Shown: positions 19,130 to 53,510 of the stretch, one piece after another
Layout: the number at the start of each line of letters is the position of its first letter
Position numbering within the stretch: the first letter of the stretch is position 1
Assembly: GCA_047967505.1 (NCBI GenBank)
Contig: CM106538.1
Strand: one strand, 5' to 3'
DNA: 64,000 bases
Source: Dipteris shenzhenensis
Lineage: Eukaryota
The notes under the pieces: generated by a model
What the model was told of the DNA's origin: nothing
Seen by the model: only the letters and a program-made list of their open reading frames with translations
Database searches by the model: none
Position numbers and translations under genes: made by a program

Positions 19130-19675
19130 TATATAATAATATTTTAATGTCTACTAATCATGGATTAATGATTTCTCTTCTCGTGACACTCCCTCCTGCT
19201 TGAACGGGCAGAAGTACATATGTACACCTATAGCAGTGCATAAACGGAGGGCTTTAGCCTCACTTCGCACCCGATCACACCAGCTGCAAATAGAAACAGG
19301 GGGATGGAAAAAGATGCCAAGGGAGAGTAGAATATGCCAACTATGTGATCAAGGTATGGTTGAAACAGAAGAACACATGGTAATGATATGCCCTCACTAT
19401 GCACACATTAGGGAAGAGTTCAATCACCTCCTTGAGGGACATAACAAACTGGCTGATTTGCTGCATAAAGGGTCACCTTCAGCTTTAGGAACATTTGTGT
19501 ATAAGCTCTTCAAGCATAGGAATCCACCTGAATCCTAGAAGGTGGTTTCTCTTTCCACCCTCCCATCTTCGGGAGGAGCTTTCATGTACTTGTGATATTG
19601 TATTGCCCAGGTCCCATAGGCCGGTTTTGGTCTTCAGAGGACGATAATATATTCTTCTTCTTCTTCTTCTTCTTG
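19130..19675 (+). mobile_element. 5'-truncated LINE 3' end (CCHC region, terminal hairpin, (TTC)n tail)
   Basis: LRTRSHQLQIETG...RICQLC...ETEEHMVMICP is homologous to the C-terminus of the LINE at 1-4466. Hairpin motif at 19611-19649. Confidence 0.85.
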
Positions 19676-20137
19676 TCCCTTTCGCTTACGTACGCTTTTC
19701 TCTTTTACTTCTGCATTTGCATCTCCTCTTCACAATCTACAAATAATCTTCTATTGGTAGTATGCGATCTTTTCATAATCAAAACTTAAATCTCATCTTC
19801 AAGTTCTGGTTTCTCTTGATGCTGAATATTCAAAATGCAAAAGTACCACTGCACTGCCTCTTCACTATCTCTTCATGCTCAAATCCTCTTCAGAATACCA
19901 AGCTGCTGAAATCTCTTTATAGTAACTTGCTCAATAAGATGAAACATATTCTCAACAAACTGGTCAGTATTAAAACGATTCTCTCACCCAAATATTTCAT
20001 TAAACTAGGTGGACCTTGACTATAGATGATTTTGCGACGAAGAGCTTCTTAATCTATAGAAACTATAGATCATCAATCTCTTTTTCCAACTCTTCTATTT
20101 CAGCCCTATTCATCCTATAAGATGCTCTACATGGAGG

Positions 20138-20290
20138 AGAAAGAAAGAAAGAAAGAAAGAAAGCCTATTAACGTCCACGAGAGACCAAGAGGTCTATGGG
20201 ACAACATGAAAGCCGTCTAGTACATCAGCTTAGGGAGGGCGCAGGGCAACTCCCAAGGAGTGCAAAAGCAGCTCCTTTATTGTCTGTCCA
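20138..20290 (-). mobile_element. Short 3'-end copy related to the ORF1-only element at 33000-34179
   Basis: About 120 bp align by eye with 34020-34140 (ttttgcactccttgg...ccctccctaa...gtactag...gtcccatagacc...gttaata), followed by a (TTTC)n tail. Confidence 0.8.
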
Positions 20291-21344
20291 TACTCTACAA
20301 TGAGTATGCCTACTCTCTATTCAGTTCACACATCCATACACCAGTGTTGGCTGAATGGATAGCATTTACTCTTGGTTCTATTTTCATTGTAGAAGCCTCA
20401 CCCTCCTGCTTGGATGCTTTGCCTTTTCCTTTTTTTGGCAATTTTGGTTAATAGAGTAGGACATTTAGGCCATGGATGCCCTGGCTTATGCTTCTTACAT
20501 CCGAAACATTTACCCTCCTTCATTAGCTTTTTCTTCTCATCGTCAATCATGGAAGGATATGGTATCCATCCAGAACGTGTTTGGCTATTAACAATTTGTA
20601 TAATAGCTTTCTCCTTTCCTTTGTTGAAGGGTTTACGAGGATTTAATTTCCTCTAGCAATCTCGGCCAATTTAGTGAGGCCTTTCCGTGTGGTTGGGTTG
20701 AACATTTTAATCTCATGCCTCACATTCGGACTTAGGGCTGCTAAATACTTCTTCCTTCTATCATCCTCACTCTTCTAGAACCTAGCTATAAATTCAACAT
20801 GAGACCCAACACGCAGAGAGTAGACCGATCCCCCCTCCACCGCAATACTGCAAAGAGCAAATCCAACTATCCAACACCTCCCGTGTGATAGTGGCTTCTC
20901 AGTCAGCTTGCACCCGGCAAGGGCAAACCATCACTCGTCATCCCTCCTTACTTTGAACTGGGTGGTCAATACCATCAACCAAAGTAAAAGACAATACAAT
21001 CATTTTTTGGGAGACAACCCAAGGCAAAGTACCTCTTATTGACTCCAAATACATTCAATTTAGAGGGACAACTCGAGACTCAAAACCTTTATTTGACTCA
21101 ACATAAACACACATAGCATAGGGGCCTAGAAAGCCCAACCCTGGTCAAATGGATCCTCGTCATCAAGAGAGAGGCCATGAACCTCTGCTGTAGCTGCATG
21201 TATCTCCTCTAGGGGCTCTTCAGGTTCAGCTTCGTCTTCAACCAAAAGATTGGCATGATGCTTCTCTTATTCATGTGCTTTCTTCTTGAAGCAATGGGCT
21301 TCAATGTGTCCTTTTCTCTTGCAAAACCTGCAAATAATGTTCTT

Positions 21345-21760
21345 GTTGCGTGCTTAAGCCCGGTGGTGGGTGAGTGGTGGCTAGTAAACTGCTAGCCCGG
21401 TGGAATCGTAGCCACAACAGACGTGGCTGTAATCATTCATTACCATGCACTCTAGTACTCTACTGAGCATGTGAGCCTGGTGATTGGTAATTTTTACTGC
21501 ACTCGTAGTGATCATACATGCTTAAGCCCAGTGGTGGGTGAGCGGTTGCTGGTAATTTTAACTGCCATCCCGATGGAATTGTAGCCACGACAGACGTGGC
21601 TGATGAGAGCCACCACCACCGGGCAGTAATTCCCACAAAAGTAAATCATGAAGCCTAATCACCTCTAATCCCTCATTACCATGCACTCTGAGCATGCAAG
21701 CTCGGTGACTGGTAATTTACTGCACTCGTAGTAATCATGCATGCAAGCCCAATGGTGGTA
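21345..21760. repeat. Diverged tandem duplication (about 170-240 bp units)
   Basis: The blocks gcttaagccc.gtggtgggtgag, gtagccac.acagacgtggctg and cattaccatgcactct...ctgcactcgtagt each occur twice. Confidence 0.75.
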
Positions 21761-21799
21761 ACTGAGAGCACAAACTGCATATACAGCTTCTACATCTAA

Positions 21800-22350
21800 C
21801 TTTGTCATGCAGGATGAAAAGTGCCAGGTTTGGGCACGTGAACTTTGGAAGTCTTATGCTATTGCAGAAATTTCAGATGGTGGATGCCTTGCCTCATTTA
21901 GAAGCCCCTCCTAAGCACACATGTGAGGACTGTATTCTAGGTAAAATGTATAGGTTCTCATTCCCTACGAATAGTGCAGTCCAAGCTGCAAAGAAATTGC
22001 AGCTCGTTCACAGTGATGTTTGCAGTTCTATGTGCACACAATCTCTTGAGAGTCACTTCTGTTTTGTCACTTTTCATAGATGATGTCACACGTTTTCCTT
22101 GGGTGTTTACAAAAATCAGGAGTGAACATTGTGTTGAAGCCCTGGTGGAGAATCAGTCTAGATGCAGAATACAGACTCTACATTCGATGAGAGCAGGGGA
22201 GTACATGTCCAAGGAGTTAGCAAACTTCTTGGCTGAGAAAGGCATCGAACATAAATGCACACTCCACTATACTCCTCAACATAATGGAGTAGGTGAGCGG
22301 AAGAACAAATCATTCATGGAGATGGGGAGGTGCATGATCAAGGCCAAAGT
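21800..22350 (+). mobile_element. Copia integrase fragment
   Basis: RFGHVNF, CEDCILGK, LVHSDVC and PQHNGVGERKN motifs. Confidence 0.8.
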
Positions 22351-25221
22351 ACTGCTACTGCTTGTCGAATTACCCTCAGGCCAAAGGATTTGGTCGAGCT
22401 CTCTCAAGATTGTCACCAAGGATCCATCGATGAGCTCACCAGCCTTCCTCATCGGTTCACTTGTTGAGATATCCTTCAGGCCCCCCCTCCAACTCAGTAG
22501 CACCAGGACAACGGTTGACAGACAATTTCCAGCATCACAGCCTGGGATATCCAGGTGGCTCAGTCTTGTGATGGGGGGGGGCAGCAGACTCGATGTGCAA
22601 CCACCCTCGTCAGTATCTAGCATGATATCATATATACTCTGCAAGCTATCTAGAAGCAGGGTACGGAAGATTCCAAAAAGACCAATGAAAGGCATGATCC
22701 CCTCTGCAAGGCTTGCATCTTCTATGTTGTCGCAATCGAGGTATCCATTGATTGTATACCCCACCCCCCCCCCCTGTTGTGTTTGTCCCCTTCTGGGGTA
22801 CTCTAGCAATGAGCTGAGAACCTGAGAAGCAGGCCGCAGGACAGCCAGCACTTGTTTTTTCAGTCCCTTGCAGATTGCTGAATTTGTATTTTTTCAAAGG
22901 AAACAAAAAACAAAAAAGCAAGCTGCTTATGGGTCCAAACTTAAGGGAAGAGGCAACATATTCTTAGGTATGTTGACCTGGCTATAAAATGTTTTCAGTG
23001 CTCTCCCAGTTCTCCATAGCCATCTCAGTCCAATTTAAGGAACATTTCTATATACATTTCTATATAGTTACTCTATACATTTCTATATAGTTACTCTCTT
23101 TACCAAATGCTCAAACGGCAAGCTCAAATGATAATCAGCAAAGCCTGCCTCTGTAACTGTTCCGCAAAAGCATTCACATGGTTAGAGAGTCCAGACTGTC
23201 AAATGACCCAATTCTCCTTCCTAAATATGCACAATAACATCAAAATACTATTTTCTGCCTCTACACGCACTGGACATGGATCTCCTCTCAGCTAGGGGAA
23301 AATGTTGTTCCAAAGAGGACCCAGTCTGCACATCTCCAAATGGGGCATTGACAAACTCAAGTTCAATGGTCTTACTTGGTCAGGATCACCCGGGTCAGCT
23401 CCACATTTTTACACAATTGTCTGTGTATTATGTCTGGATAATTCAAAGATATTCCCTGCAAGCAAAGGAGCTATGTCTTATTTGAAGTAGGAAAAGTGGA
23501 ATCAGAAACACACTTCCCTTACTAGGTTTGATTTAATTTAAATCAGTGCTCCGCTTTATTTCCACTTTGCAATGTTCTTGAAAACCCCCGTCCACATTAA
23601 TGAGATCCTTCTATATTCAGATCAGCCAACATCATGTGCCCTTCTTGTCGTAAACATGCATATATGGGGAACTCTTCACTCATGAAAAATATTGGAATTT
23701 AAAGTATAATGCACAACAGAAGCTTACACAGGCCCTCATTCACATTGCCGAGTCCTAACTTCCTCTTGCGGACGGTGGACCCCTCAAAAGGAGGGAAGAG
23801 CTTACAATAGCCTCTCTATGATGATGATGAGCACTTAAACTTTTGACCATTGCACCTCTGCTGCTCTTCATCATGCTTTCATTTGTCATCTAGAGATACT
23901 TACTTTGTTCTTGTCTGCAATCCAAACTAGACATATTTTGTATTCCTTTAGTTGACACTCCAAAAATTTTGTAAATATTATTGATCTTTTCGTTCTTTTG
24001 CTCCTCTTCTTGTGTGCATGTACAAATGTTACATCTAGTTATTCTTTGCCACTTACCTACACTTAGATCTACTCATATCTATTATTTCTATATTCCTGTT
24101 TCTTCCACCATTGTGGAATTCCCAGGCAACACCTGGAGACAAAATCTTTGATTGCGGCCAAAGGTGCTTCACAGCATGGAGTCAGTTCAACATTGCAATT
24201 GGGGTTGCAGAGAAACCCATAGGATCTGGCAGGGCATTGCACACCTGATTGGCAAATGAGCACAGGTACTTGCTACAGCACCTAGGGATCCGTCGCCTAG
24301 GCTAACACAACCAGGACCTCTGGACTTTTACAAGGGCGTATGGCTTTCTTCACCAGGGAGGACGTCCCTCAGATTATCACACTAGATGCAGTGGCAGTTA
24401 CTGTGTCTAGGCCTGATTCTCCATCTTAGATTCAGCCTGGGAGATAATTGCTAGTTTCACTCCTGGCAAATGTGGTGTTTCATATATACGAAGGCTATCG
24501 ATGGGATTCAAAGTATTACCTTGCAGGATATCATTCACACCCGTCGTCACCATTTGGGGCAGGATTTAAAATTCCTCACAGGCTGCTGTGGTGAGGAGAG
24601 CGTCCTCTAAGAGGGAGTGGAACCACTATTTTATTTCCACATACACTGCCACAGGGCCTTCATGGTATTTGCACTTTCCGGATTGGTTGCAACAGCCTCG
24701 TATCTTGTCTACATGATTTTGTATGAGGTTCTCACAGGAGTTATCATGGTCATACTTAATAGAAGTTTCTATATTTTGGTCATACTTAAAAGACTTTCTC
24801 CTTTGAAGAGACAGGGAGGGGGCATGCAGGTTTTTTGGGGGCGAAGGGGGGAGACCATCCTTCCAGTACTACAATCAAAACTCCTTGTATAATATTGGCC
24901 CACATATATCTTTGGTAGGCCCTTCAAGTCCTTGTGAACACTGAGGCGTTCCTCTTTCTTTCGTTTTTTGCATATGTAAATGAACATATTTTCACGCACG
25001 TGCACACACATTAAACGCATCCATCCAAACACAAACACACAAAAGAGATCTCTGCTATGTAAATCAACAGCAGAGAAACATTCTATGGTTTCACAGACTT
25101 TCAGCTCTCGCATACTGATACACTTAAGTTCTCTCTTTAAAGAAAGCAAGTTGGCATTGAGTGACAACATGCTCAAAGGGATGGGATGGGGGGAGGGGGG
25201 CCGAGAGAGAGAGAGAGAGAC

Positions 25222-25625
25222 CTGCAGGACAGGATCAGGAATATGTGGCATCCGCTCATCAAATGGCTCAATAATGATAGAAAAACCACGGGTATAGGTG
25301 CCGATCAGTGTAGCAAAGTTGCAGACAGTTTGTATATGCAAAAACTCATCAGTGTCTGTGATCTCAAGCGTGAGCAGAAGAGAATGCAGTCTATCATAAC
25401 AAAACTTCAGTGTCTTTTGATCAATTCCTGCCTGCGAGTTCAATGACATAACAAAAGAGACAGGCCCCTCACTCTCAACTTTATCTGTTTGGAGCCTGTT
25501 CTTGAGATATTGCAATAGTCTTTTCAGAAAAGAAACAAAATGCTCAGCCCGCCTGATATTTCCAGGTACAGCTTCTTTTAATATGTCATCAGGCAAAGCA
25601 GGGTTGGCAAGCCAGACGTTGGAGC
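25222..25625 (-). CDS. XPD: XPD coding exon 3 (404 nt)
   Basis: tttgcag|GC TCC AAC GTC TGG gives GSNVWLANPALPDDILKEAVPGNIRRAEHF...EPFDERMPHIPDPVLQ|gt. Phase 1 in, phase 0 out. Confidence 0.95.
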
Positions 25626-25869
25626 CTGCAAATAGAAGCGTAAGATGTGAGTATCAGGGCAATTAAAGCAGAAAAAACTTGAAACCAACTAAAATCATAC
25701 CACCTTAGCGAGGCCATTAAACTAGCACATTCCATGCCATTCTACATTAGCAAATGCGTGTAACAGCATGACCAGCCAAGCATGTTCAAGTTCCAAGAAG
25801 CAAGCTGGCATTTCAATAATGCACCATCCAAATACATGCCCATGAAGCACTGGCCTAAAGATCAATATC

Positions 25870-26353: not shown

Positions 26354-28000
26354 CCCCCTTGCAGTGCCAATGTGATGTACAAGGAAGTGATCAATCACCA
26401 AAAGGAGTTAAGTTCAAGGCACTGCGAAATGCCTCAAACTTCTCACGTGAAAGTGCTTTGGTGAAGATGTCTGCAACATTGTCATGTGTTGACACATAGA
26501 TCATACTGATCTCTCCTGCATGCAACTTCTCTCTGACATAATGATAATGAACCTCGATGTGCTTCGTGCGAGCATAAAACACAGGATTCTTTGCCACTGC
26601 TATAGCACTCTGACTATCAGTGAGAATTGGAGAAGGGCCCTCCAATAAAAAATGAAGATCAGCAAACAAACGACGCAACCAAACACATTCAACTGTCGCT
26701 GTGAAAGCTGCCCTGTACTCAGCTTCACATGAGGAAGTAGCCACAGTAGATTGTTTCTTGCTCAGCCAAGAAATGCAAGCTTTGCCCAAAAAGAAACAAT
26801 TACCACTAGTGGACTACCTAGTGTCATAATCTCCAACCCAATCTGAGTTACTATAAGCCTGCATCTGCAAGTCAATCCCCCTGGGAAACATCAAGCCATA
26901 GGACTTTGTGCCTTGCAAATAATGAAAGATGTGTTTTACAGCCTGCCAATGTGTTGTTTTTGAGCTGTGCATATACCTGCTCACCTGAGATACTGCATAC
27001 TAAATATCGCGCCGTGTATTGCACAAATAAATGAGGCATCCAACATCCTGGCTGTAAAGTGTGACATCCATTGATTCACCAGCATCATACATAGTAAGCT
27101 TCAGCCCCAGCTCCATGGAGTGGCTATAGGCTTACAATCTTGCATGTTGAACCTATCCAAGAGCTTTTGCACATACTGGGATTGAGACATAACAATGCCA
27201 CACTTGTCTTGTATGAACTGGACCCCCAAATAGAAATTTGACATGCCCAAATCTGTCATGTCGAAAATTCAGCCTTGAAATCTGCAATTATTTCCTCATT
27301 TGACCCTGTGAGCAGCATGTCATCTACATAAAGAATGATGACCAAAATATCCCCTCCATCCTTCTTGACGTAGAGGGTGCTTGCCGTGGGACTATTGTGT
27401 AACCCCTTACTTGCCAGGAAGGCATCAATCTTGGCATACTATGCACATGGGGCTTGTTTCAGCCCATATAAAGCTTTATTCAGCTTGCAAACTTGAAGTG
27501 CGTTGCCTGAAAGTTCAAATCCAGGAGGTTGTTTGACATAAACCTCTTCCTGCAAGTCTCCATTAATGAAAGCTGTTTTTATGTCCAACTGATGGACATT
27601 CCATACAAAATTTACAACCATGGCAATAACTCACCTTATGGTGGTCATCCGAGAAGTAGGAGCAAAAGTCTCCTCATAATTTATGCCCTTTTTCTTTTGA
27701 GGATAGCCTTTGGCAACCAGCCGTGCCTTGTACCTATGAATGGACCCATCTGGCTTCCTTTTCACTTTGAAAACACATTTGGTACCAATGGCATGTTCCC
27801 CTAGTGGCAAATCCACAACATCCCAAGTTTGATTTTTCTCAATGGACTGCAATTCATTGTGCATGGCATGCATCCAATGCACATTATCCTTGGCTTCTTC
27901 AAAAGAGTCACGTTCTTCTTCATCAAGAAGAGTACCAGCATAAGCTGTCTCAACAAAAAGAGCCCCCCCTGCGTGCCTTACTGCACTATGAGTCCTGCAA
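26354..28000 (-). mobile_element. Copia family A RT-RNase H, decayed
   Basis: Same family as 7620-9905 (AYAGTLL.EEE.D.FEEAKDNVH; SSCEAEYR.AFTA; TKHIEVHYHY). Confidence 0.88.
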
Positions 28001-28019
28001 AGGTGCCTCAAGCCTACTC

Positions 28020-31000
28020 TCCCTGAAGTAGCAACTGTACTTTGCTTCTTGCTGAACCAAGAAATGCATGAAATACCAAGCATGAAACAGTGGCCACTAT
28101 GTGACACACAGGTGTCCGAACAACCAACCCAATCACGATCAGTGAATCCGTGCATAGAATCAGCCTCATAAAGAAGGCCCAAATGCTGAGTGCCTTTGAG
28201 ATACCTCAAGATACGCTTCACGGCATGCCAATGGTGCGTAGAGGGGCTGTGCATATATCTGCTTAAATGTGAGACAGCATACTGAAGATCAGGTCTCGTA
28301 CGGCATAAATAAATCAAACAACCAATTGCCTGCTCAGTACTGATAGAGAGTGACATCACATGCAATGCTGCCATCCTCAAAAGAGAAGTGAAAACCAGGC
28401 TCTAATGGTGTGGATATTGGCTTGCAATCCTCAAACTGAAACACTACAAAAGCTGTCCAATATACTTCGATTGTGACATCAAAATGCCCCCTCACTGCTA
28501 GCAGACTAAATGCCCAGATAGTAATGAAAAAGACCAAGATCAGACATAGCAAATGTCTTCTGCAAGTCAAAGCTTAAAAGCTTCAATTTGCTCAGCATGT
28601 GTCCCAATCACAAGCATGTCATCCACATAGAGCACTAAAATCAGCAAATCTGTCCCACTCTTGCGGATGTAAAGGGTAGCCTTTGTAGGGCTGTTCTGAA
28701 AGCCAAGTGTGAGTAAATGGGCATAAATCCTGGAATACCAAGCCTGAGGTGCCTGCTTCAATTCATAGAGGGCTTTCTTTAAGCGGCATACCTTGCTTTC
28801 AGAACCTTCAACCTCAAAGCTTGGAGGTTGGGAAACATATACGTCTTCTTGCAAAGGCCCATGCACGAAAGGTGTCTTGATATCAAGCTAATGTACCTCC
28901 CAATGAAAGTGGGCAGCAAAGGCAATAACAATATGGATAGTAGTGATCTGGGAAGCAAGGGCAAAAGTATCCTCAAAGTCAATGCCCTGCTCATTAGCAA
29001 CAAGACGGGCTTTGTAACGGTCCACTGAACCATCAGCTTTCCGTTTAATCTCATAAACCAACTTAGTTCGAATGGCATTCTCGCCAGGAGGCAAGTCACA
29101 CAACTCCCAAGTGTTATTCTGATAAATAGAATCCAATTCAGCTTGCATAGCCTTCAACCAACAATCATTCTGAAAGGCATCCTTATGGCATAATGGTTCT
29201 TTATTGCATGATGTAGCAACCAATGCGCAAGTGTCAAGCAACCAAATTAGCATGCTCTTTCCAGACAGCTGCTCTAGTATGGGCTGGCAGAGGACTATCC
29301 TATTTGCTGTCTTTTAATGTGTTAAGGAGCCAACGGGGGACCTTCCTGGGCTCTTGGATTTTCACCTCTTTCCTGGTCAAGAGCCCTGTGCATAATGTCC
29401 TAATCAAGCTGAGGCACCGCAGGCTGTAAATGAGGCTGAATATCATGCTGCATATATGGCTGCAAATGACCAACAGATGAAGGAGGAGAAACCTCAAATG
29501 TGACATCATCATGAGCATCTGACGGAAACAAAAGCATTAAGCTGTCAAAGAGATATGGGGCATCAACAACGGGCTTTTTTGACAGTCCAGGAAAGGCATA
29601 GTGGAGGATTCATCAAATACAACATCCCTACTCACAAAACACTTGCCCATGCGGGGCTGGTAGAGCTTGTAGCCCTTGCTCTCTGAGCTATACCCAATAA
29701 AAATGCATTTGACAGCTTTATCGTCCAACTTGGTGCGTGTCTGAGAAGGCACATGGGCATATGCGAAGCATCCAAAAGTCCTCTTCTGAGAAATCTGAGG
29801 CTTATGAACTGTCCAAGCCTCATAAGGTGTGATGGTCTTCAATGCCTTTGTAGGACATCTGTTCAAAATGTAATTAGCACACATAATGGCATCCAATCGC
29901 AACTTGTTAGGCAAGTGCTTGCCTTTCAACCTACACCTAGCCATCTCCATCACTGATCTATTCTTCCGCTCAGACACGGGATTCTATTGCGGAGTGTGAG
30001 GCCGTGCACTGATGATGAATGCCACGTAAGGCAAAAAAAACAGCAAATTCCTTTGACATATATTCACCCCCAAGCCAATAAAATGCCGGAAGCATGTAGA
30101 AACTTCAAATTTGGATTTCAAAGCAAAAATCCAAGTAAACGTGGTGAAGTCATCAAGAGCTGCAACCCGCATGGGTCCACAAACATCACTATGAACCAAA
30201 TAAAGCTTGCGTGAGATACCAACTCTCCCATCCTTGGGAAATGCAGAATGGCGCATCTTATGAAGCAAGCACGGTTCACATGAACCATGCTTTGGAGGCA
30301 TATGCATTTTGGGAAGATCAACAGCCATACCATCCTTATATAGCTTCACCAAAGCCCCAAAGTTGAGGTGTCCAAACCTCTCATGCCACAAATGGGTATC
30401 TACTATGGTAGAGGAATCAACAGCAAAGGCATGCGCATCTGCAAGTGCAGCATCATCCAAACATCTGTCATAAGCATCAAGTCTATACAGACCTCTAGTC
30501 AATGTGCCAGTCAAGACATTGGTAAAGGCATGTGTAGTATCATACACTGCGCACCGAATACCATAAAAAAGAACCTGATAGCCACATGTAGCTATGGCTG
30601 AAATAGAATGAGGTTCTTGCAAATGCCTGGAACATAAAGGACATTCTCTTAAGAGCAAGTTGCCCAACACCTTTCACTGTATATGATGCATTATTGGCAC
30701 ATGTTACATTGCTCCCCTTAGATGTATGCTCAAGTGAGCTGAATAACTTCCTGCAGGAAGTAATGTGCTTGCTAGCACCACTATCAAAGAACCAGGCATC
30801 AGATACATTAGAAATTGTCATGCAGGCATCATAAACATCAGGATTATACTGACCAGGAAAGCCCAATGCTGGTCTTGTGCAAAATTAGCTAACTCATGTC
30901 GATATGCTGGAGGAGGACAGTCAAAAACCGCAAGACCAAACTCTTTCTTCTTCTTTTCAGATGCAATTCTCTTCTTGCATTCAGAGATATCATGCCGAGG

Positions 31001-32999: not shown

Positions 33000-34140
33000 G
33001 TGCCTGACTGTCCCTGGACAAGGGCTCACAAAGGGGTCACAGCATATGACAAAATCTCCTATCTGGGAACTATAATGCACTTGTCGATGTAGCCAGCGTG
33101 TCACCTTGCACCCAAGTGGAGGGGTGCATGTGACATGATCTATATAAGACTGCTGCTCCTCCTGATCCCCGTACTCCACCTGTCTCCCTCATCTCCTCCC
33201 TATAGGTTGACTCCCAAGTGTGTCCCCCTCAACTCCCTCAACTCCTTCAACATCCATCAAAACTCAGTACTCTATAGTTGCAGTTATCTGCAGCAGGCAA
33301 TGACAGAGCTACGATTGGAACTGGCAGAAGTAAAGGCTCGACTTCACATTCTGGAAGGGCCTCGTAAGCAGGCAGTAATTGATGAGGCTGTAAAATCTTG
33401 TAAGGATTCCCCCCTTACCCTGCAGCTAGTCTCTACAGTCAAAGATCTTGTTCACATTGAAGTACAAACTGCTAAGAAGGAAATGATTGTGGAAGTGGAC
33501 ACCAAAGCATGTAAGTCTGATATTCAAGCAGAGATTAAAGAACACGAAGCTAGATGTGATAATGCGCTGAAGATTAGAATAGGGGGACTCCCAGAAGATT
33601 GATACAAAGAGGAGGATACATATAGTGAGATATTGACAAAGATCAAAGCAAGCTTGCCCAACATTGAATGGGTGGATGATGATGAGCAAGATGATGACGA
33701 CTCTAGGCCAGCTTCTATTTTGCACTATAAAGGTCATGCAATCCTTACACTGAAGTCAAAAGATATGCAAATCAAGCTTCTTCGACAATCTTACAAGTTG
33801 AAGGGCACCAAAGTATGGATAGCAGAGGAGCTTACACAAGCTCAACTTAAGATTAAGGCAACTGAATTAGCTAAAGTCAGGGCTGCCAGAAAGGATGGAA
33901 AATGGACAGTTTACCGTGAAGGCGTAGCACTAATCAGAGAGTTCAAATCAAAACCAAAAGACTCTCAATCTTAAACTGATGTATGGCTGTTTACTCTTCC
34001 ATACTATCATGTAGGTACTCTAAATAATGTGGGTTGCTTTTTGCACTCCTTGGAAGCTGCCATGTGCCCTCCCTAAAGCAAATGTACTAGAGGGTTCCTT
34101 GCTGTCCCATAGACCTTTTGGTCTCCAGTGGATGTTAATA

Positions 34141-34179
<39 letters not shown>
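33000..34179 (+). mobile_element. ORF1-only non-autonomous LINE derivative (half-LINE-like)
   Basis: ORF1-like frame 33300-33974 with one in-frame TGA at 33600 (IRIGGL, KVWIAEELT, GKWTVYREG). No EN/RT follows. A ~165-nt 3' UTR ends in the shared hairpin and a (TC)n tail. TATATAA lies near 33141. The 5' boundary is approximate. Confidence 0.72.
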
Positions 34180-34185
<6 letters not shown>

Positions 34186-34203
34186 GAGGTCTCCCAAAGA
34201 CGT

Positions 34204-34265
<62 letters not shown>

Positions 34266-35039
34266 CTCTCCTCTCCACCACGCTAGCATCTGCTCAGCCG
34301 CTCAACCTCCAGTTAGCCCATCCAGTTAGCCTCCGCTCAGCCTCGCCAAACTACACTTTGCCCCTCCGTTCGCCTCGCTCAGCCTCTATCCGTTAGCCGC
34401 TCATCCACCTCTTCGTTCAGCCTGCTTAGCCCCCGCATTTAGCCCGTTCAAGTCGTTGTCGTCAAGCAAGCCGCAGGAGAGTAAACCCCAAGTAACCCCG
34501 GGCTGGGCTGAACCCTTTGGCCCAGCTTGGGGGTTAGTCTTAGGAAAGGGGCTCCCTACACAGGCCACCAAATCAAGTTCCCTAAAACCAAACTATTTGC
34601 TACAACCCCAGCCAACAAGAAGCCCTTCTACGCTTCCATAACTTCAACACCATCCCCTATGCCTTGACCTACCATAGATTCCAGGGTAAATTTGATCCAC
34701 GTGAGCAGATCTATTTTCTACAGCAAGAACTCAGCGATGCAAGACTTCGCATTGCCTCTGGAGAAGATAGTTGCAGAAATGAAAAACAAGGGCGCCATTG
34801 CGATAGTAGGAGAAGTTGGTGATGGCTCCCATGTTGGTGAGAAGAGAATGTTCAACTCCTCAATAGGTTTTGGTGACTGGGGCAGAGTCATTTCTTGTTC
34901 CTGTAGCTCTTTATTGATGATTACAGCCAATACATTGGCCTGATGAACCATCAAGTTTTTTTGTGAAGAAGATGAAGTGCTGGATCTAGTCTTGCTTTAG
35001 CTTCCTACTTAGTAAAACAAATGTGCGGAGTGGAAGGGA

Positions 35040-35764
35040 ACAATTCTTGTAATTCAAGAAGTTCTACGGCAATGCAATACAGCAGCCCCCGCACCAGAGC
35101 TTGTGACCAAGGTACAAGAATTGGTTACGACTCAGCTCAAGTCTATTAAAGAGGAATTTACAGCAACTATGAATACCAAGATGAACAAGTGTGATGTCTA
35201 TGAGGAGGTGAAAGAGCAAGAAACCAAAGCTCGAAATAACCGGATTATACGCATAGGGGTCTAACCGAGACTACACTCTAGAATGTGGAAGTATGAAAAT
35301 AAAGACTGAATATCTCAAGAAAACAATTCCCCGGATTGAAAGGGATCCAGAAGAGATAGATTTTGCCCACCAAAAGGGGGAACAAGCAAGAGTAATCTTT
35401 CAAGACAAGACACCAAGGAACAAAGTCCTCAGACAAACCAACAAGCTGAGAGGTACTAGAATATGGGATTCAGAGGAGCTCACGCCGACTCAAAATCGAC
35501 AAAAGTAAAAGAAGCTCTGTTTCTTGAGATGGTATAGCACTAATGAAAGACTTCAATCCTAGACCCAAAGATTCTCAGTCTTAAAATGATGTAATGACGG
35601 CCACTTTACAATAGTATTAGACTTTAGTAGTTTGCTACATAATTCGAGCTGAGATGCCTTACGCACTCTTCAACTCTCTCTAGCACTCAGAGATGTAAGT
35701 ATTTCCCTTTTTGGAATGTGTAATTTGTCTCATAGTCCCATGAGAAATTCTGCCGACGTTAGTA

Positions 35765-35797
<33 letters not shown>

Positions 35798-35810
35798 CTC
35801 TCTCTCTCTA
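35040..35810 (+). mobile_element. Second, more decayed ORF1-only element
   Basis: LRQTNKLRGTRIWDSEELT and the same C-terminus PKDSQS* as the first copy. Short 3' UTR, degenerate gtcccat...gacgttag motif, and a (TTTC)n/(TC)n tail. Confidence 0.68.
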
Positions 35811-36749: not shown

Positions 36750-38575
36750 AGAGGTATTAACGTCTTTCGGAGGCCTCACGCACAATCACAAAAGTAACCC
36801 ATACAAGCCAGTGTCCATAGTTGCACGAAACGCCGTTTCTTGCGGCCAAAAACGCCAACCGTTTCTGAAAATGGCGAAACAGCATTTCTAGCTGCCTTTT
36901 TTTTTGAAATATTTTACATTTTTTTTTTTAATATACTTTTTCTAGGGCTTTTGTAAAACACCCTCCAACCTCTCCATTCTCCTCTACCCTCTCCTACTCT
37001 AGCCTCTCCACTCCCCTACCCTCTCCATTCTCTTACTCTAGCCTCTCCACTCTCTTACGCTCTCCTACTCTAGCCTCTCCACTCTCCTACCCTAGCCTCT
37101 CCATCCTCGTGCTCCTCTCCTCATTCTCTTGCTCTCCCTCCTCTTTCTCCCCATACTCTCCCTCATCCTCCCAAGTCCCCATAGTCTCCCCCCCTCCTCT
37201 GCATACACTTCGTCCTCCACCTCCTCCTCCTGTCCATCCTCCTCCTTGAGTCCTCCTCCTACTACTCCTCATACTCTCCCTCCCCCTTCTCCTCATAAAT
37301 TTATTTTCACATAACTATACCGTATTGTCGTTTCTCATTTCGCCGTTTTGGATCGGCTCGAAACTTCGTTTTTGGCGTTTCTGCCACTTTCGTTTCGGCA
37401 TGCTACTATGCCACTGTCGGCTGAAGCAAAGGGCTTGCTAAGACCTTCGTTGAGTACTGAGCTAAAACAAATACAACAAAAACTAGTACGCAAACTCAAG
37501 GTCAAAATACAAAGCCCGGTTCTACGGTGGCTCTCCTATGAGCTGCAAAAATATATCATCTCTGTATCTGTTGGGTCGTCTCTCTAGGCGTTGGGGGACG
37601 TGGTCTCCGTGATCTCTATATTCGACGGCCCATGTCGATATTGGTCCCTTTGATCGGGTGATCCCCTCCGAATATGGCTGTGATGGGCTGACCCTCCATC
37701 GTGCGTGCCCTAGTCCGTCTTTGCATCTCTGGCTACGTCTCTCCACAACGTCGTCTCATCCTGCCCCACTCAGCCCTTATGTCATCTATCTCCTCCTCCT
37801 CAACTCCGCTCTGTCCAAGGGTAGACTCGAAAGTGTTCAAAATCTGTAGCATTTCCTTGGGCTCAATCTAGCTCGGTCCCACATGCCACTGTCTCCTCCT
37901 GCTCTCTAATGCGGCTCATCAAGGCCTATCTATGTCGTTGCATCTCCATCAAATAGAGACTAATGCAAACCTCATGCTGGAAGTGAATCAGCCATGAGAG
38001 AGGCCCAAACCATGTCCCTCCTAAAATAAGCAATAGTATCGTCCTCATATCTCATCGTAGACAGGGCAAGTACATAGGAAGTGCTCACCTCCTCCAAGGT
38101 GCATTGCCTACAGATCCATTGCTCTCTGGGTGTACCTGTGGCTCTCCCTACCTCAATCCTCAATCGATGGGACAAGACCCACATCTGTCCGATGGCGATC
38201 CTCAATGCGTGAGACTCGTCTATCCTTCAAGTACCGAGGTGTCTGATACCCACTCCATCCATCGATACTCTAAGGAATGATCACGGTAGAATCGGATCTT
38301 GGTGGGGAACTCCTGCCCTCCCCAAAGTCCGCGACGTGTGGATCTGAAGTAGGTCCAACCGTATGACACAGTTGATCTCATCCCGTGGAATCAGGTGGTC
38401 AAGAGCATCTAAGCTGTACTGAAAGGGGGAAGACTGTCCACCCGGATGTCCTAGCTGCGAAACCATTTGGATTTGCATGCGTACCAAGCCATGCTCATTC
38501 CCTCTCAGCTAGGCATATAGACGACTCTAGTGCCAATCTCAACAATCTCCTGTCGGAAGTGCAACGGATCTTGAC
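36750..38575 (-). mobile_element. 5'-truncated, decayed LINE of the same type as 1-4466
   Basis: RIAIGQ..VLSHRLRIEVGR...ICRQC C-terminal region, and a partial terminal motif at 36755-36780. Confidence 0.78.
36816..37410. mobile_element. MITE with 8-bp TSD (hAT-like), inserted in a LINE 3' UTR
   Basis: Termini CATAGTTGCACGAAAC / GTTTCGGCATGCTACTATG are imperfect TIRs. Flanks are CCAGTGTC (36808-36815) and CCACTGTC (37411-37418). Removing it restores similarity to 38695-38760. Confidence 0.8.
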
Positions 38576-38588
38576 AGAAATGGGGGGG

Positions 38589-38590
<2 letters not shown>

Positions 38591-38624
<34 letters not shown>

Positions 38625-39360
38625 TAGATGTATTAACGTCTGCAAGAGGCCTCGCGGGCCTATAAGACAAAGTGCAAAACTAAAAGGTAGCTTATACAAG
38701 CCACTGAGGACTGAAGTAAAGGGTTCACTAAGACCCTTACTGAAAACTGAAAGCTAAAGTGCTAAACTAGTGGACAAAATACTTAGCAAAATAACATAAG
38801 AGTGTCAGGTGCTCACGGCTAGCATTTCTAGTACATGCTCAAGTTCCACATATCCAGGTACCCTAGTGGCTCTCTGATGAGATGTGAGAAGCTCTCGTAC
38901 TGTGTATGTCGAGTTGTCTTGCGACGTGGGGAAGGGCGTGGTCTCCTCGATCTCTCGATCCGGTGGGCTACATCAAGGGTGATGCCTCGTCTTCGGCGGT
39001 CGCCTCTGAGAAGGGCTGAGATCTCGATCGTGCGTGCTCCAGGCTCTCTCCATGTCGCACGTGGAGCGTGTCCCTCGTCTGGCAGCATCATTGGACACTC
39101 CTACTGCTAATTATGATGCTCTCATCTCATCAAGCTCCTCTCCCTCAGCCACACCAACAGCTGACTCAGATGGATAGAAGTCTGTAACAAAAGTATGTGA
39201 TCTGTCAACGATGACCTGTGGCATCAGTCCATGCTGCTCTCTGGTCTGTTGCATCAATGTGTCTCTCTGTTGACGCATCTCAATCAAGTAGAGCCCAACA
39301 TAGACCTGATCGTGAAAATGTATCAGCCGTGTATGAGTGGACCAAAGCAATGCCCCTCCT
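38591..39360 (-). mobile_element. 5'-truncated LINE 3' end bounded by (TC)n on both sides
   Basis: Terminal hairpin at 38631-38668, 3' UTR similar to 37420-37470, and AG runs at 38591-38622 and 39367-39390. Confidence 0.72.
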
Positions 39361-39399
39361 GAGAGTGAGAGAGAGAGAGAGAGAGAGAGAACCTCACGC

Positions 39400-40173
39400 G
39401 CACACAAAACTGGAAAGCAAAGAAAGAGATGAGAGAACTGCAAGTGATCTCAAGACAAAACCCCCGTCCAGTGGGGAAAACCTTGCTGAATAGATAGGCA
39501 ACCGTGCTCCACAATGAGATGCCAAACAATGAGGGAAGGGGGCCTATATATAGCCTGACCCCCCCCCCCTCCCTAGTCGACAATAGCAATAGGCCGCCCC
39601 CTAGCCCTAGGTGGCCGACTCCTGCCCTTAGGTGGGCCGACTTGGCCTGCTCCATGAAGGGGCTGCTGCACAGCCCTATAAAAGGGTTGTAGCCCCTGCC
39701 TCTTGGCCCGACTATCCCCCTACAAGGGCCGACCCCTACAACCCTACCATGGGCCGACCAACAAGCCTACCTCAGGCTATAAAACGATGTTGGTGCCTAG
39801 CAAAACAGCCCTAAAGGTGGCCCCTCCTGGCATCCATAGTGTGCAGCAAGGGAGCTGCCTATGCAGCACATAAGTAGGCCCACCAGGGCGCCGAGCTGCA
39901 AGGGATCTGTGCCATACTAACTGGCACAGATCTTGGCGAAGCCTCCAAGTAGGCTGATCAACCCAGGCACATGCCTGACTCCACTACCAGAACATGGCCC
40001 AGGTATGCATCCATCCCCCCTCCTACTCTACCCTCTTAGGGGGCGGGCACACCCACAACAAAGGCCCTCACTCAACCTAGCCTGCCTCTTACTGGGCGGG
40101 CACACCCACAAGCAAGGCCCTCTCTCTCTACAGTAACATCAGGAGATGTTGAACTCCAACACCCCCTCTCAGC
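39400..40173 (-). mobile_element. Copia-type LTR with PPT, related to the young copia
   Basis: The minus strand reads GCTGAGAGGGGG-TGTTG at 40173-40157, the same PPT/LTR start as 16104-16120. It is similar to 44837-45622 at both ends. Confidence 0.7.
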
Positions 40174-46015: not shown

Positions 46016-46313
46016 CCATCTCAGCAGAGAGGCAGCAGACTTTATCTTCTTCAGCATCAGGCCTAACGCTTTCAAAAAACAAGGTTAGGTACTATCGAAG
46101 TCGAGCTCCTTTTGTGGCGTGTATGATTTCAAAACTGGTTTCCGATCCTTCCTTCAGCAAAGCTACATGGCTTTGGCAAGCGAGGAAAAGGAAATCAAGA
46201 GTAGCTAGTCCAAATTTTATAGGCACTAAAATTTTTATAAGAAAGAGATACTATGTAACTACTTATGTTAGCTAAGGTTGCAGGAAAGTAATGAAGGAGC
46301 TTGTGAGACTTAC

Positions 46314-47122
46314 TTCTGTATAGTTTGAGTAATTTTGCTTAGATTCCGACTAGCCCCGTCCAAAGTTTGCTGCCGAAGATTAACACTCAAAGCTTCGATG
46401 CAAACATTATCGATATTGTGTGCTTCGTCAAAGACAACAATGCACTCCTTTTGCATCTCTCGTGAAATGATACCCGAAACCTTGGGATCCAGGAGGTATT
46501 GATAATTGTAAACAACCACATTGGCGAACTGTATCATATGCCTCGCAAGAAAGTAAGGACACCAACTCTTCTCTTTACCATAGTTCCTAAGGTCTTGCAG
46601 CGTGTACACCCCAGAGGGGAGGAGAGCATCAGCACCCTTCTTTTCATAAGCTTCGAAGAATGGACACAACTCTATATCCGGATTATCAACTGCCGCTGCT
46701 CTCACCCATGAAGCGGTGAGTTTTCGGCACCCAGCATCAACACTCTCCCTGGAACCTTCCGCACTGACTTTAGGATGAATGCACAGATTTTTACGAGAGC
46801 TCAAGCCAAGGGCGAGGATTTTGGCACCTTTACCAAGTTCCTTTTCTTGGTAAGCCTGAAGGGTCCGAAGCTCATCAAGCACCTTCTCCATCTCGTGCAC
46901 GGTGCGAGTGCAGTAGATCAATTTGCCGGTTGGGTTAGCGAGCTGGTAGCTTGTGATGAGGGAGAGCAAGGTGATGGTCTTACCAGTGCCAGTGGGCATC
47001 TCCAGGAGGCAGTGACCTTTGGCATCGAGGGCACGCTTGAGCTCCAGCATGTACTGATGCTGTTCTGGGTATATGAACTCGTAAGGGAAGTAAACTGTAA
47101 GACCTTCGATCTTGAACTTCAT
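46314..47122 (-). CDS. XPD: XPD/ERCC2 (UVH6/RAD3) TFIIH DNA helicase, coding exon 1
   Basis: ATG at 47122 gives MKFKIEGLTVYFPYEFIYPEQ. It contains Walker A EMPTGTGKT, four Fe-S cysteines (NLCIHP, AGCRKLTAS, ELCPFF, WCPYF) and the DEAH box VFDEAHNIDN. It ends ATA CAG AA|GTAAGT (phase-2 donor at 46313). Confidence 0.96.
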
Positions 47123-47169
47123 GGTGACCCAAACACAAGAATGCCAAACTCTAACTTGCACCAATTTAT

Positions 47170-47267
47170 AGGGGGGGGGGAGAGAGAGACAGAGAGAGGA
47201 TGATGATGATGATGACGACGATGATGATGATGACGATGACTAACGATGATGATGATAAGGGGGGGGG

Positions 47268-47329
<62 letters not shown>

Positions 47330-47432
47330 CGATGACGATGACTACAACGACGACAATGATGATGATAAGGGGGGGGGGAGAGAGAGAGAGAGAGATGATG
47401 ATGACGACAATGACGACCATGATGATGATGAT
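47170..47432. repeat. Compound microsatellite, three units of Gn-(AG)n-(ATG/ACG)n, just upstream of the XPD ATG
   Basis: Read directly; units start near 47171, 47259 and 47369. Confidence 0.95.
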
Positions 47433-47690: not shown

Positions 47691-47741
47691 AGGCTGACCT
47701 TGTCCCATCTCCTTTGGCACACCTAGTGAAATTTTCACCTT

Positions 47742-51300: not shown

Positions 51301-51450
51301 TTTCTATCACAATTGCCTATGTTGTCACAAGCCACAAGGCACAAGGGTGCACAATCTCAACCAAAGCCATGGTGGTAATTCAAGAAGCATTCACACCCAT
51401 TTAGCATATGTTATGCTATCCAGATTCACAATATGACACAACCTTTGTAT
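48400..51450 (+). mobile_element. Decayed Helitron Rep-helicase
   Basis: Rep motifs in order: LFPFLF.FGHG, GLPNLFLTL, HGLLHV, CKYGFP, YLQKYAMKME. Pif1-like motifs follow: GMLGTRRT, IIIYEISM, GDRIMIIKKLN..GAAN, IAYVVTSHKAQG, YVMLSR. Many stops and frameshifts. A possible 3' end CTAG|T lies at 53389-53393. Confidence 0.8.
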
Positions 51451-53407
51451 TGTGGGACAATTAACACTAGACACCATCCAATTGTAAAATCTCATATTAG
51501 AAGAAGTAACAATATTTTCCACAAATTCCTTACTTTGATTCTACACGTACAAATCAGCCGTCTTGTTTTGACACGTGCTATTAACTACATCATCAACCAT
51601 GGACCCAAACCAAGTAATAGATAGAAACCACCATTTTTATCTCGTTCAATTCAATGAAATTATGATCAAACACTCCAGATAAACAAAAAATGTCTACTTA
51701 TCAACAACCCAGATGAAGCTGGCAAATAATGCAAGTAGAGAGCCCATTGCATACATCCGAGGGTTCCCTTCATATGGAAATTGAATGAGTTCATGAAAGC
51801 AACAACTAGCCAAAAAGGACAATTCTGACCGATTTGCAAATGGTAATGTCAGTAACTATCATGATGAATCGACTATAACTATTGCAAAAATAGAGTTTTA
51901 CTAACAATTGTCTAATGAATTGATTTGCAAGCCTTGTGAAATGGGTGAATTGGTGGATGTGATACTCAGACAGTAACGGAAGTGCCGAACATTGAAGACT
52001 ACCCAACCAAAGGTGACAAAGAGGAACAAAAGAAAGCACAAGGAAGCTATACATAAATATCATCAAGCCTAATCTATACATGTTGCAAGGAAAAGCACAA
52101 GAGGTATTCAATAGTAAAGCAAATGAGATCTCTTACTACTGCTTCGAGTTGTTGCACTACGGGTTCAATGTCATGGTTGATCCTTGCTGCCAATGTCATG
52201 GTTGATCCTTGGCAGGTAGCATTAGATCGGAAGACAAGTGCTGATATTTTGAACAATTTTATGGATGAGTTTGGATACAAGTACTCAAATGACAAAACTA
52301 TATTGACAATAGAAAAGGTAACCAAATTAATAGCACTTGATCTAGCAGACGAGCTATATGGCGAACCAAAGATAGACCTGCCGTTCACCCAAAAAAATAA
52401 AGGTATGCAAGTAATGCTACCTTGGTGCATAATTCTACCAAGAAAATAATTGTCCATTGTTATTTTTAAAACAAAAACCATGAAATAAATAGTCCTTGGT
52501 TGTTGCCTTGCTAGTCTAGAGAGCAAAGCCACCCATGATCATGGATATGACACACACCCGACAAAGTAGCTTGTAATAGCAAAAGCAACCATGTGGTCTA
52601 CTGCATAACTTGCAAGCATATTAAAAAAATACATCGACCACACCATCAATCTGGCAACATGCATTCAAACCCACAAACATCGACCACTAGCTAGGATGAG
52701 ATCAAATGTAGAAGAATATACCTTTTGATGAAAGCTTTAGTGTAGACATTCTAGCAAACATAGAAAATGTAGATAATGCAATCACCTTAGAACAAAAATA
52801 CATAGTTGAGTTTGATACGAATGGCAATAGAGGATACAACAATCTCAAAGGATACCCTCCTTGTGAGAAAAAATATTACTACTTAAAACACTGCCACATT
52901 AAATAGACCATCCATGGGATTTTTTAAAGAGCATTTTTCTTAAGTATTTCTTGTGACTATTGTGAGTAATCACTATAACATGTAGCTATACTTTTGCTCA
53001 TGATGTTTTTATTACACTACATATCCATCAGTTTTATCGTTTTTAATAATCAATAGAAATTGAACTTTGAAATTAGATAAAACTAAGCATGACTCAACAA
53101 TTGTAAGCTAAGACTCTTCGTCATGCTGAATCGCAAAACAAGGACATCAATGTGTAACCACAGATTTTAATTTATAATCTCACATCGATCTTTTACTTAG
53201 GCATGCTTCGATATACAATTTTGAAAAATAATTTTGCTTAAGTACTTGTTATGTCGATTCCAAAGGTATGTTGTAAGCTGTAGTTCTACTTTTGTAAAAT
53301 AATCTCTTGTGCAATATTTTTGTTATTTTTAATAACCAATAAAATGCAATTTCAAAAGCAGATTGCGGGAAGGGTTGGTCATATGCTGCTAGTTATTATT
53401 ACTATTT

Positions 53408-53411
<4 letters not shown>

Positions 53412-53474
<63 letters not shown>

Positions 53475-53510
53475 TAAAGTCTTCGAAAGACTATTGGGCC
53501 TATGAGATTG
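53412..53510 (-). mobile_element. LINE-family terminal hairpin with long (TC)n tail
   Basis: The minus strand reads atctcat aggcc caata gtctt tcga agac tttaata, followed by the GA run at 53412-53470. Confidence 0.6.

Follow-up and report, generated by a model that had tools for sequence, protein, structure and literature searches.

What is the short hairpin that recurs beside TC-type microsatellites along one stretch of DNA from Dipteris shenzhenensis? The stretch (contig CM106538.1 of assembly GCA_047967505.1), called the window here and analysed over its whole length of 64,000 nt, is streptophyte DNA rich in transposable elements (TEs). A first-pass annotation had reported eight sites in it with a common hairpin and 3′ box, and had read them as the terminal recognition signal of a plant long interspersed nuclear element (LINE) outside the L1 clade. 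As described below, the hairpin is very likely the conserved 3′-terminal module of a LINE family with an APE-type (apurinic/apyrimidinic) endonuclease in a non-seed streptophyte genome, and the tandem repeat behind it a tail borne by the element itself. The earlier reading stood in so far as the module is of the LINE 3′ recognition type, covaries, is not L1-like and is tied to TC tracts, while the "diverse partners" claimed for it were overstated.

Eight copies of a hairpin module

All eight reported motif sites were inspected base by base. The module consists of an outer stem GUCN/NGAC, a 3-nt internal loop ending in AU, an inner stem of 5 bp and a loop of 4–6 nt; its 3′ side carries an internal loop of 5 nt and is followed by the unpaired box GUUAAUA and then by a short-unit tandem repeat. 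Each site was read directly where it had been reported. They fall into five full copies (19611+, 20166−, 34104+, 38631− and 53472−, named by their first position) and three partial or decayed ones:

19611..19649, + strand: full hairpin with the box variant GATAATA (at 19643); 43.4 bits with the covariance model, minimum free energy (MFE) fold as proposed at −11.7 kcal/mol
20166..20202, − strand: full hairpin with GTTAATA (read directly, covariance model match, fold)
34104..34140, + strand: full hairpin with GTTAATA, outer 3′ strand GGAT (at 34128) giving a G-U pair (read directly, covariance model match, fold)
34181..34208, + strand: fragment of about 29 nt with the box and the 3′ half of the hairpin only (box match; covariance model E = 2.7)
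35735..35765, + strand: decayed hairpin, inner stem lost and outer stem kept, with GTTAGTA (33.6 bits)
36753..36799, − strand (copy 36755): decayed hairpin, 5′ strand deleted, with GTTAATA, at the 3′ end of LINE copy Y (28.7 bits; alignment to the 3′ end of X)
38631..38668, − strand: full hairpin with GTTAATA, at the 3′ end of LINE copy X (read directly, covariance model match, fold)
53472..53508, − strand: hairpin with one mismatch per stem and TTTAATA (34.6 bits)

The consensus first proposed describes these copies overall, with small departures at 19643 (GATAATA), at 34128 (GGAT) and in the mismatched stems of copy 53472 (outer ATCT/AGAC, inner AGGCC/AGTCT, one mismatch each). The 29-nt fragment at 34181 belongs to another subfamily than copy 34104 and is embedded in a CT tract.

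The box GACGTTAATA, with at most one mismatch, was matched 8 times on both strands of the window, compared to 1.39 expected matches (sd 1.28); none of 100 dinucleotide shuffles reached this number, and the 8 matches coincide exactly with the eight reported sites. A covariance model scan of the whole window on both strands with filters off gave no additional copy: the seven training copies were recovered at E ≤ 1e-4 and the half copy at 34181 at E = 2.7, while the next two matches had E > 8. The same seven copies were recovered with a second model (R2, see below). The proposed two-stem hairpin is also the MFE structure predicted for four full copies out of five (−10.6 to −12.1 kcal/mol), and a different fold is predicted for copies 53472 and 35735.

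The module at the 3′ end of LINE coding sequence

The following LINE coding features of the window are considered here:

1..4466, − strand: LINE A, APE-type and nearly full-length (Pfam, tblastn)
19164..19538, + strand: ORF2 C-terminal coding remnant with a CCHC motif (tblastn, translation)
36800..38572, − strand: LINE copy Y, 5′-truncated (tblastn, alignments)
38669..39360, − strand: LINE copy X, 5′-truncated and decayed (blastn, alignment)

ORF2 C-terminal sequence lies directly upstream of three copies of the module (19611, 38631 and 36755), and ORF2 or ORF1 coding sequence stands in register upstream of five of the eight. The remnant before copy 19611 is the tblastn target of the last approximately 100 residues of 32 related reverse transcriptase (RT) proteins (19164–19523, + strand); its translation contains C-x2-C...H-x4-C (CQLC...H....C) and runs to a stop at 19538, 72 nt before the hairpin, which is the 3′ end of a 5′-truncated LINE copy. 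In Y, the C-terminal part of ORF2 occupies 37914–38572, and the 3′ untranslated region (UTR), split by an insertion of about 590 nt at about 36816–37405 (− strand), resumes just before the decayed hairpin 36755. X, which ends in hairpin 38631, has its homologue in the terminal part of ORF2 and the 3′ UTR of Y (blastn, 562 nt at 61% identity). The last approximately 119 nt of copy 20166 match the 3′ UTR of copy 34104 with 82% identity. LINE A is laid out on the − strand as ORF1 (3638–4466), endonuclease (2420–3418) and RT (863–2419), according to Pfam and tblastn. The nearest proteins to its RT are from ferns (Adiantum, Ceratopteris; up to 57–63% identity), Taxus, Ginkgo and liverworts, so that the named protein relatives comprise ferns, liverworts and gymnosperms.

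Several side observations concern these elements. The insertion in Y is rich in tandem repeats of 22–39 nt (TRF, 36969–37294) and is flanked by CAGTGGC and CACTGGC, a possible target-site duplication. LINE A (window 1–1200) is covered by contigs of three separate public studies with the same coded organism and of one run labelled algae metagenome; compared to the window, these contigs have insertions of 12 nt (after 20) and 10 nt (after 892) and a 3-nt deletion at 485. Contigs from three runs reach 406, 397 and 266 nt past the window start. A second, distant LINE RT fragment (17014–18023 and 18186–18770, both − strand; 25–31% identity to the same relatives) seems to have received the truncated copy ending at 19611 as an insertion, and its own 3′ end is apparently cut by a copia element.

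The same module was found in RT-relative loci taken from metagenome contigs, of which 80 were kept out of 480 confirmed. A regular expression for the exact motif gave no true copy in the 80 loci; the module was recognised there by inspecting microsatellite-flanked ends and then by covariance model. Several loci terminate in a microsatellite approximately 620–790 nt past the RT match, and the architecture before it is that of the window motif. Model R1, trained on the seven window copies and five locus ends, matched the 80 loci 23 times at E ≤ 1; none of these matches was on the strand opposite to the RT, and only the three in locus L044 were not 3′ of ORF2. Model R2, rebuilt from the R1 matches, added nothing new, with 21 matches at E ≤ 0.1, each of them likewise on the RT strand. 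In 20 of the 80 loci the module follows the RT match in sense orientation, at a distance of 520–1070 nt from the end of the match in 19 of them; the twentieth, L051, has a shortened RT match. Among the 31 loci with at least 1150 nt of downstream sequence, 17 contain the module. It is placed 30–110 nt 3′ of the ORF2 stop on the sense strand, and it is kept among relatives with an RT identity of only 31–59%.

Individual loci illustrate this arrangement; L004 and L005 are intact. In L004, a coiled-coil ORF1 precedes a 1127-aa ORF2 (endonuclease, RT, CCHC) that stops at 4453, followed by the hairpin at 4489–4536 and by (CAAAT)6, and in L005 ORF2 stops at 4708 and the hairpin lies at 4740–4789. L002, whose RT is closest to that of LINE A (59% identity), ends in the module and (TTTC)3, 1072 nt past the RT match; with the same spacing, the module of LINE A would fall about 200 nt past the window edge. 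These loci and the coding sequence in the window both bear out the claim of the first-pass annotation that the motif is a LINE 3′ end.

Among the relatives, two further points were observed at the protein level. RT relatives P0030 and P0034 (and P0035, P0038 and P0050 by precomputed Pfam) carry a PHD finger approximately 250 residues past the RT domain, and the Taxus gene model P0014 joins the RT with a SASA esterase domain, perhaps through a fusion made in annotation.

Two other classes of element were considered as carriers of such an end. The hairpin could belong to a short interspersed element (SINE) or another non-autonomous family with a borrowed LINE tail, the nearby LINE fragments being coincidental. 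The similarity among most window copies, confined to 40–120 nt, would fit this, as would copy 53472, upstream of which no element was assigned. Over the whole window, ARAGORN found no tRNA-like gene or head and Rfam no family at gathering scores; the coding sequence in register before five of eight copies and the 21 of 21 locus matches on the RT strand, 19 of them downstream of the RT match, likewise make a SINE origin very improbable, and it was rejected as no head derived from pol III was found in the window. The same searches bear on the partners of the signal: only the family's own 5′-truncated copies and an ORF1-only derivative carry it in the 64 kb, and no SINE or foreign partner was found, so the "diverse partners" of the first-pass annotation are not supported. 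A short GC-containing hairpin near an element end also recalls Helitrons, which have a 3′ hairpin followed by a CTRR end and encode a Rep/helicase gene. Here the end reads GTTAATA plus repeat without a CTRR terminus, the hairpin lies 3′ of LINE ORF2 on the sense strand, and no Helitron helicase or Rep was seen in the large ORFs scanned, the only helicase matches being the host XPD. The probability of a Helitron end is practically nil, and this reading was rejected since the position relative to ORF2 contradicts it.

Whether the hairpin itself or only its letters are conserved was assessed with 28 aligned modules, using as controls partners slid by one to three columns and 500 column shuffles. 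Standard pairs make up 84.3% of the cells, compared to 26–58% with slid partners (58.3% maximum); the covariation score is 0.401 (≤0.143 slid) and 41 cells show double changes (≤11 slid). None of the 500 column shuffles reached the observed value for percent paired, covariation score or double-change cells. The outer pair 4 occurs as A-U (9), U-A (7), U-G (6) and C-G (5), and the inner stem varies by family with the pairing retained (AGACC/GGTCT, GGGTC/GGCCC, GGATC/GGTCC, GGACT/GGTCC and AGGCT/AGCCT). The covariation of both stems claimed earlier is real within the window, where it rests on few copies, and becomes much stronger with the relatives added. The letters GUC, AU of the 5′ internal loop, GAC and GUUAA are nearly invariant, which points to sequence-specific contacts besides shape.

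This near-invariance leads to the question of whether a linear motif is conserved, for example a protein-binding or priming site GUC...GAC GUUAAU, with the hairpin being incidental. Such a motif would account for pairs 10-55 and 11-54, which hardly vary, for the most conserved letters, which are fixed and so cannot covary, for the modest folding z-scores and for two covariation measures that stay within the shuffles. It would not account for six of nine pairs changing on both sides, with four pair types at outer pair 4, nor for inner-stem letters that differ between families while pairing is kept, and a slide of one column lowers the pairing from 84% to 37–58%. A purely linear motif is therefore regarded as improbable, and the module is taken to be a folded LINE 3′ end.

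Two copies of the module follow ORF1 rather than ORF2:

33261..33974, + strand: ORF1 homologue with one internal stop (ORFs, BLASTP, tblastn)
35016..35530, + strand: second, more decayed ORF1 homologue (tblastn with the ORF1 of the 34104 element, 34–36% identity)

The first of them contains a coiled coil, an "ALKIRIGGL" motif and a C-terminal domain. It matches the ORF1 of LINE A (3638–4570) with 32% identity over 82 aa (BLASTP, E = 2e-9), with a weaker N-terminal match and a common "AL(N/K)IRI.G" region; no Pfam or PDB match was found for ORF1. In the 34104 copy, the ORF1 stop is followed by 130 nt and then by the hairpin, with no ORF2 in between. The 34104 and 35735 elements have the junction between ORF1 end and 3′ UTR in common (66–76% DNA identity). 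Since two diverged copies carry the same junction, an ORF2-less derivative appears to have multiplied as such, and judged from the sequence the 34104 and 35735 copies represent an ORF1-only derivative (ORF1, 3′ UTR and module) with at least two diverged copies. No common 5′ end emerged when the 5′ regions of LINE A and of both ORF1-only elements were compared at the DNA level. ORF1-only derivatives of mammalian L1 are known as HAL1 (half-L1). As in HAL1, ORF1 and the 3′ end are kept, ORF2 is lost and more than one copy exists; unlike HAL1, clade and host are others, and here only two decayed copies and one 3′ fragment are present.

Tails and TC tracts

The tandem repeats next to the module and at the 5′ junctions of the elements are as follows, the − strand entries being read on that strand:

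4467..4508, − strand: (CT)21 tract immediately adjoining the LINE A 5′ end, without a hairpin upstream of the tract (TRF)
19652..19674, + strand: (TTC)7.7 tail of copy 19611 (TRF)
20138..20163, − strand: (TTTC)6.5 tail of copy 20166, AGAA on the + strand (TRF)
34143..34178, + strand: (CT)18 tail of copy 34104 (read directly)
34207..34262, + strand: (CT)n tail after the 29-nt fragment (read directly)
35767..35809, + strand: (TCTT)n(TC)n tail of copy 35735 (TRF, array survey)
38581..38622, − strand: (TC)16 C10 tail of X, directly after which copy Y starts (TRF, tblastn)
39361..39390, − strand: (TC)15 tract at the 5′ junction of X (array survey)
53414..53470, − strand: (TC)28 tail of copy 53472 (TRF)

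A TC-type tract lies a few bases 3′ of all eight window copies, as (TC)n, (TTC)n, (TTTC)n or impure TC-rich sequence, the last at copy 36755; the repeat that the first-pass annotation gave for every site is indeed there. TC-type arrays cover 0.64% of the window. The box stands directly upstream, on the TC strand, in seven of the 14 arrays: six were flagged by script, and in the seventh, at 34207, the box runs into the array, while the impure tail of copy 36755 is outside the regular-expression count. Two further arrays of the 14 adjoin LINE 5′ ends. The window tails have 7–30 units and are longer than those of the relatives, in which the unit is constant per family: (GAAA/AAAG)4–5 in five loci, (GTAA)4–6 in four and a TAAACA-like unit in six. 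Where 6 kb of sequence upstream was available, the relatives did not show their tail repeat on the 5′ side as well. A tail unit that is constant within a family, short and absent from the 5′ side belongs to the element.

At their 5′ ends, several elements adjoin TC tracts as well. LINE A begins at (CT)21, X at (TC)15, Y at the (TC)16 tail of X and the 29-nt fragment at the (CT)n tail of copy 34104. Two head-to-tail arrays are formed, at 39390–36712 (− strand) and 33261–35809 (+ strand), and similar same-strand clusters occur in L044 and L020. From the four 5′ junctions, which suggest that elements integrate into TC tracts, and from the two arrays, we infer that TC-type tracts are preferred landing sites. 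The same picture would result if the template were switched from one tailed RNA to another within a single event. The tie to TC microsatellites proposed at first was confirmed in the form that the elements carry TC-type tails and sit at TC tracts.

The position at TC tracts on both sides would also be expected if these were pre-existing target microsatellites and not tails, the element ending at GTTAATA. Such a family would resemble Kibi and Koshi, APE-type LINEs of fish described as targeting (TC)n and (TTC)n microsatellites, respectively (PMC3812793), so that microsatellite-targeting APE-type LINEs are on record. The 5′ junctions of LINE A, X, Y and the 29-nt fragment fit this explanation, and so do similar copies with different tail units. 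The same microsatellite is found on both flanks of the 29-nt fragment, X and Y (of LINE A, only the 5′ side is in view); this is untrue of copies 19611 and 20166 and of the relatives with long upstream sequence. As the two copies are tailed without a TC-type repeat on the 5′ side, the tract is not simply a split target. Furthermore, the unit in the relatives is family-constant, comprises only 4–6 repeats and is absent on the 5′ side where 6 kb is available, and for three of the four 5′ tracts an origin from earlier copies, as their tails or remnants, is conceivable. An element ending at the box is thus considered unlikely, and the repeat is treated here as an element-borne tail. The family shares with Kibi and Koshi the APE-type endonuclease and the position at TC tracts (four 5′ junctions), which makes them the closest precedent for its landing-site behaviour; it differs in that the repeat is also an element-borne tail, lacks a 5′ counterpart at two copies and is family-specific in the relatives.

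Further TC tracts and clusters were seen within the window and the loci. About 20 nt upstream of the (TC)15 tract at 39361–39390 resemble the 5′ flank of hairpin 36755, by eye only, and may be the remnant of an earlier copy. A TATATAGG box lies approximately 150 nt upstream of the same tract, within 39391–39560 (− strand), a region that may be either what remains of a LINE or a promoter whose leader is CT-rich. At 47180–47431, a compound array with a 102-nt period, composed of (TC)n, a C-run and (ATC)n/(GTC)n, adjoins an XPD exon on the same strand; its (TC)n-C10 arrangement resembles the X tail at 38581–38622, without a hairpin. L044 contains modules with TC-type tails at 1864–1911 and 3267–3314, on the same strand as, and upstream of, the LINE RT at 4407–5036, and represents a further same-orientation cluster with two modules and an RT within 3 kb. 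In L020 (2340–2430), a related LINE ends in ...CACTCCCCAAA(TC)7, and its last 28 nt plus (TC)8 are tandemly repeated; a tiny truncated copy in the tail is also the pattern at window 34181.

The surroundings of the elements comprise one host gene and further TEs. Two exons of the XPD/UVH6 TFIIH helicase (HBB and DEAD_2 domains) are located at 24769–25653 and 46310–47239 (both − strand), with 89% identity to Diphasiastrum (lycophyte) and 87% to Marchantia paleacea (liverwort) as best named matches. Since more than 20 kb of TE-filled sequence separates these exons, most hairpin copies, at 33–39 kb, are intronic. An apparently intact Ty1/copia element with an uninterrupted 1401-aa gag-pol ORF is located at 11916–16121 (+ strand). 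Identical repeats with a 45-nt period on both sides of it (11386–11513 and 16493–16620) are presumably inside the long terminal repeats. Other copia fragments lie at 7660–9252 (+ strand) and 27631–30673 (− strand).

Relation to known LINEs and proposed role of the module

ORF2 contains RVT_1 and Exo_endo_phos as the only Pfam domains and no zf-RVT or RNase H, the C-terminal domains that are features of plant L1 ORF2. Plant RTE elements are not known to have a substantial ORF1 or a C-terminal CCHC motif; the present family has both a CCHC motif and an ORF1 longer than 300 aa, and its tails are of TC-type or other units. The RT core scores 63–75 bits against human L1 and 65–99 bits against R2, and the endonuclease matches only APE1-type enzymes, with no L1 endonuclease at E ≤ 1. 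Weak leads are sub-threshold PF14529 matches on the endonuclease and a protein Atlas cluster with PF09004 at rank 23; no named LINE clade was obtained for the family from protein searches, the protein Atlas or PDB sequence searches. For flowering plants, Table 3 of PMC3747384 gives poly(A) as the L1 3′ end in 224 of 233 families and (TTG)n or (TTGATG)n as RTE tails. A poly(A) end was found in none of the eight window copies or locus matches. The family would accordingly be placed, by its domains and ends, neither with typical plant L1 nor with RTE. The first-pass assignment to a non-L1 plant LINE agrees with the lack of poly(A) and (TTG)n, the lack of zf-RVT and RNase H, and an RT no closer to human L1 than to R2.

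Stem-loops at LINE 3′ ends have been described in several systems. In zebrafish ZfL2, the ORF2p region between the endonuclease and RT domains binds the cognate 3′ stem-loop (PMC4176376), and retrotransposition of eel UnaL2 depends on a stem that contains an internal loop (PMC1636434), the repeats (TGTAA)n of this element being thought to serve template slippage (PMC3747384). Like UnaL2, ZfL2-1 and ZfL2-2, the present family terminates in an internally looped stem with short tandem repeats behind it, and its tail apparently occurs in a non-autonomous partner as well. It differs from them in its host, a non-seed plant instead of a vertebrate, in the invariant GUC/GAC of the outer stem, the GUUAAU box and the TC-type tails found here, and in its partner, which is an ORF1-only derivative and not a tRNA-derived SINE. 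The likeness to the L2 clade may be regarded as an analogy of mechanism. Among plants, a conserved 3′ hairpin of approximately 45 nt with compensatory changes has been described for monocot L1 lineage 1a, LINE1-1_ZM with ZmSINE2/3 (PMC3747384, section 4.3). These stringent monocot elements share with the present family a conserved 3′ hairpin in a plant LINE, but belong to the L1 clade and have a poly(A) end, a CGAG flank and a UCU loop, whereas the present family is without poly(A). As ends in flowering plants, the 2013 review gives only L1 poly(A) and RTE (TTG)n, and as ends in green algae those of RandI/RTEX (PMC3747384). The literature search found no description of the motif; as Repbase reports and most subscription journals were outside its scope, this is weak evidence of novelty.

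By analogy with these stringent elements, the module is probably a recognition and priming signal for ORF2p. ORF2p would bind the hairpin on its own RNA (stringent recognition), and the repeat tail would anneal to the nicked target and prime reverse transcription there. The ORF1-only derivative could be mobilised in trans via the same hairpin signal. TC tracts, including the tails of older copies, might be favoured for landing through pairing of the RNA tail with the nicked target.

Several points weigh against a conserved LINE 3′ module with an element-borne tail. The function ascribed to the hairpin is carried over from L2-clade LINEs. LINE A, the only long LINE in the window, has its ORF2 C-terminus and 3′ end beyond the window start, and the hairpin motif was not found at positions 1–300. 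The module is absent from 14 of the 31 loci in which 1150 nt or more lie downstream, and L020, at least, ends otherwise. The z-scores of the folds, which range from −1.5 to −2.6 in the window copies and stand at −0.15 in L004, are modest. Two covariation measures stay within the shuffles, namely the number of pairs in which both sides change (80 of 500 reach the observed value) and the number of further pair types (141 of 500). Moreover, the alignment was fitted to the covariance model, the covariation cell counts overstate the number of independent events because many rows are close relatives, and the pairing of the inner stem is depressed to 73% because one family is aligned one column out of register. 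The 5′ junctions of copies 19611 and 20166 are not at TC tracts, and (TTTC)n and (TC)n tails on window copies that are 82% alike are not predicted by a strictly templated tail.

The kind of element end described here is known already, in a plant LINE group that is little studied, and no new principle is involved; what stands out is how deeply the module is conserved, that an ORF1-only derivative occurs, and that TC tracts appear to be preferred. A more far-reaching proposal, which we hold to be possible and rather doubtful, is that a LINE lineage belonging to neither of the usual plant clades, L1 and RTE, kept one RNA signal, the GUC/GAC-clamped two-stem hairpin with the GUUAAU box, while its RT diverged to 31–35% identity. 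Such a lineage would home into TC microsatellites by tail annealing and in this way give rise to the head-to-tail arrays, to most of the intronic TC microsatellites and to an ORF1-only parasite.

For a LINE group of non-seed plants, the module provides a concrete cis-signal that is made up of a structure, invariant letters and a tail and is conserved in distant relatives. In the large genomes of ferns, lycophytes and bryophytes, which are rich in TEs, the covariance model can show where elements of this group truly end on the 3′ side. With such a signal it can also be tested directly whether plants, like fish with their L2 elements, use stringent 3′ recognition and tail-guided integration. In the window, the module accounts for at least nine of the 14 TC-type microsatellite arrays. 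If the landing in TC tracts is true, the family would be both a source and a user of TC microsatellites.

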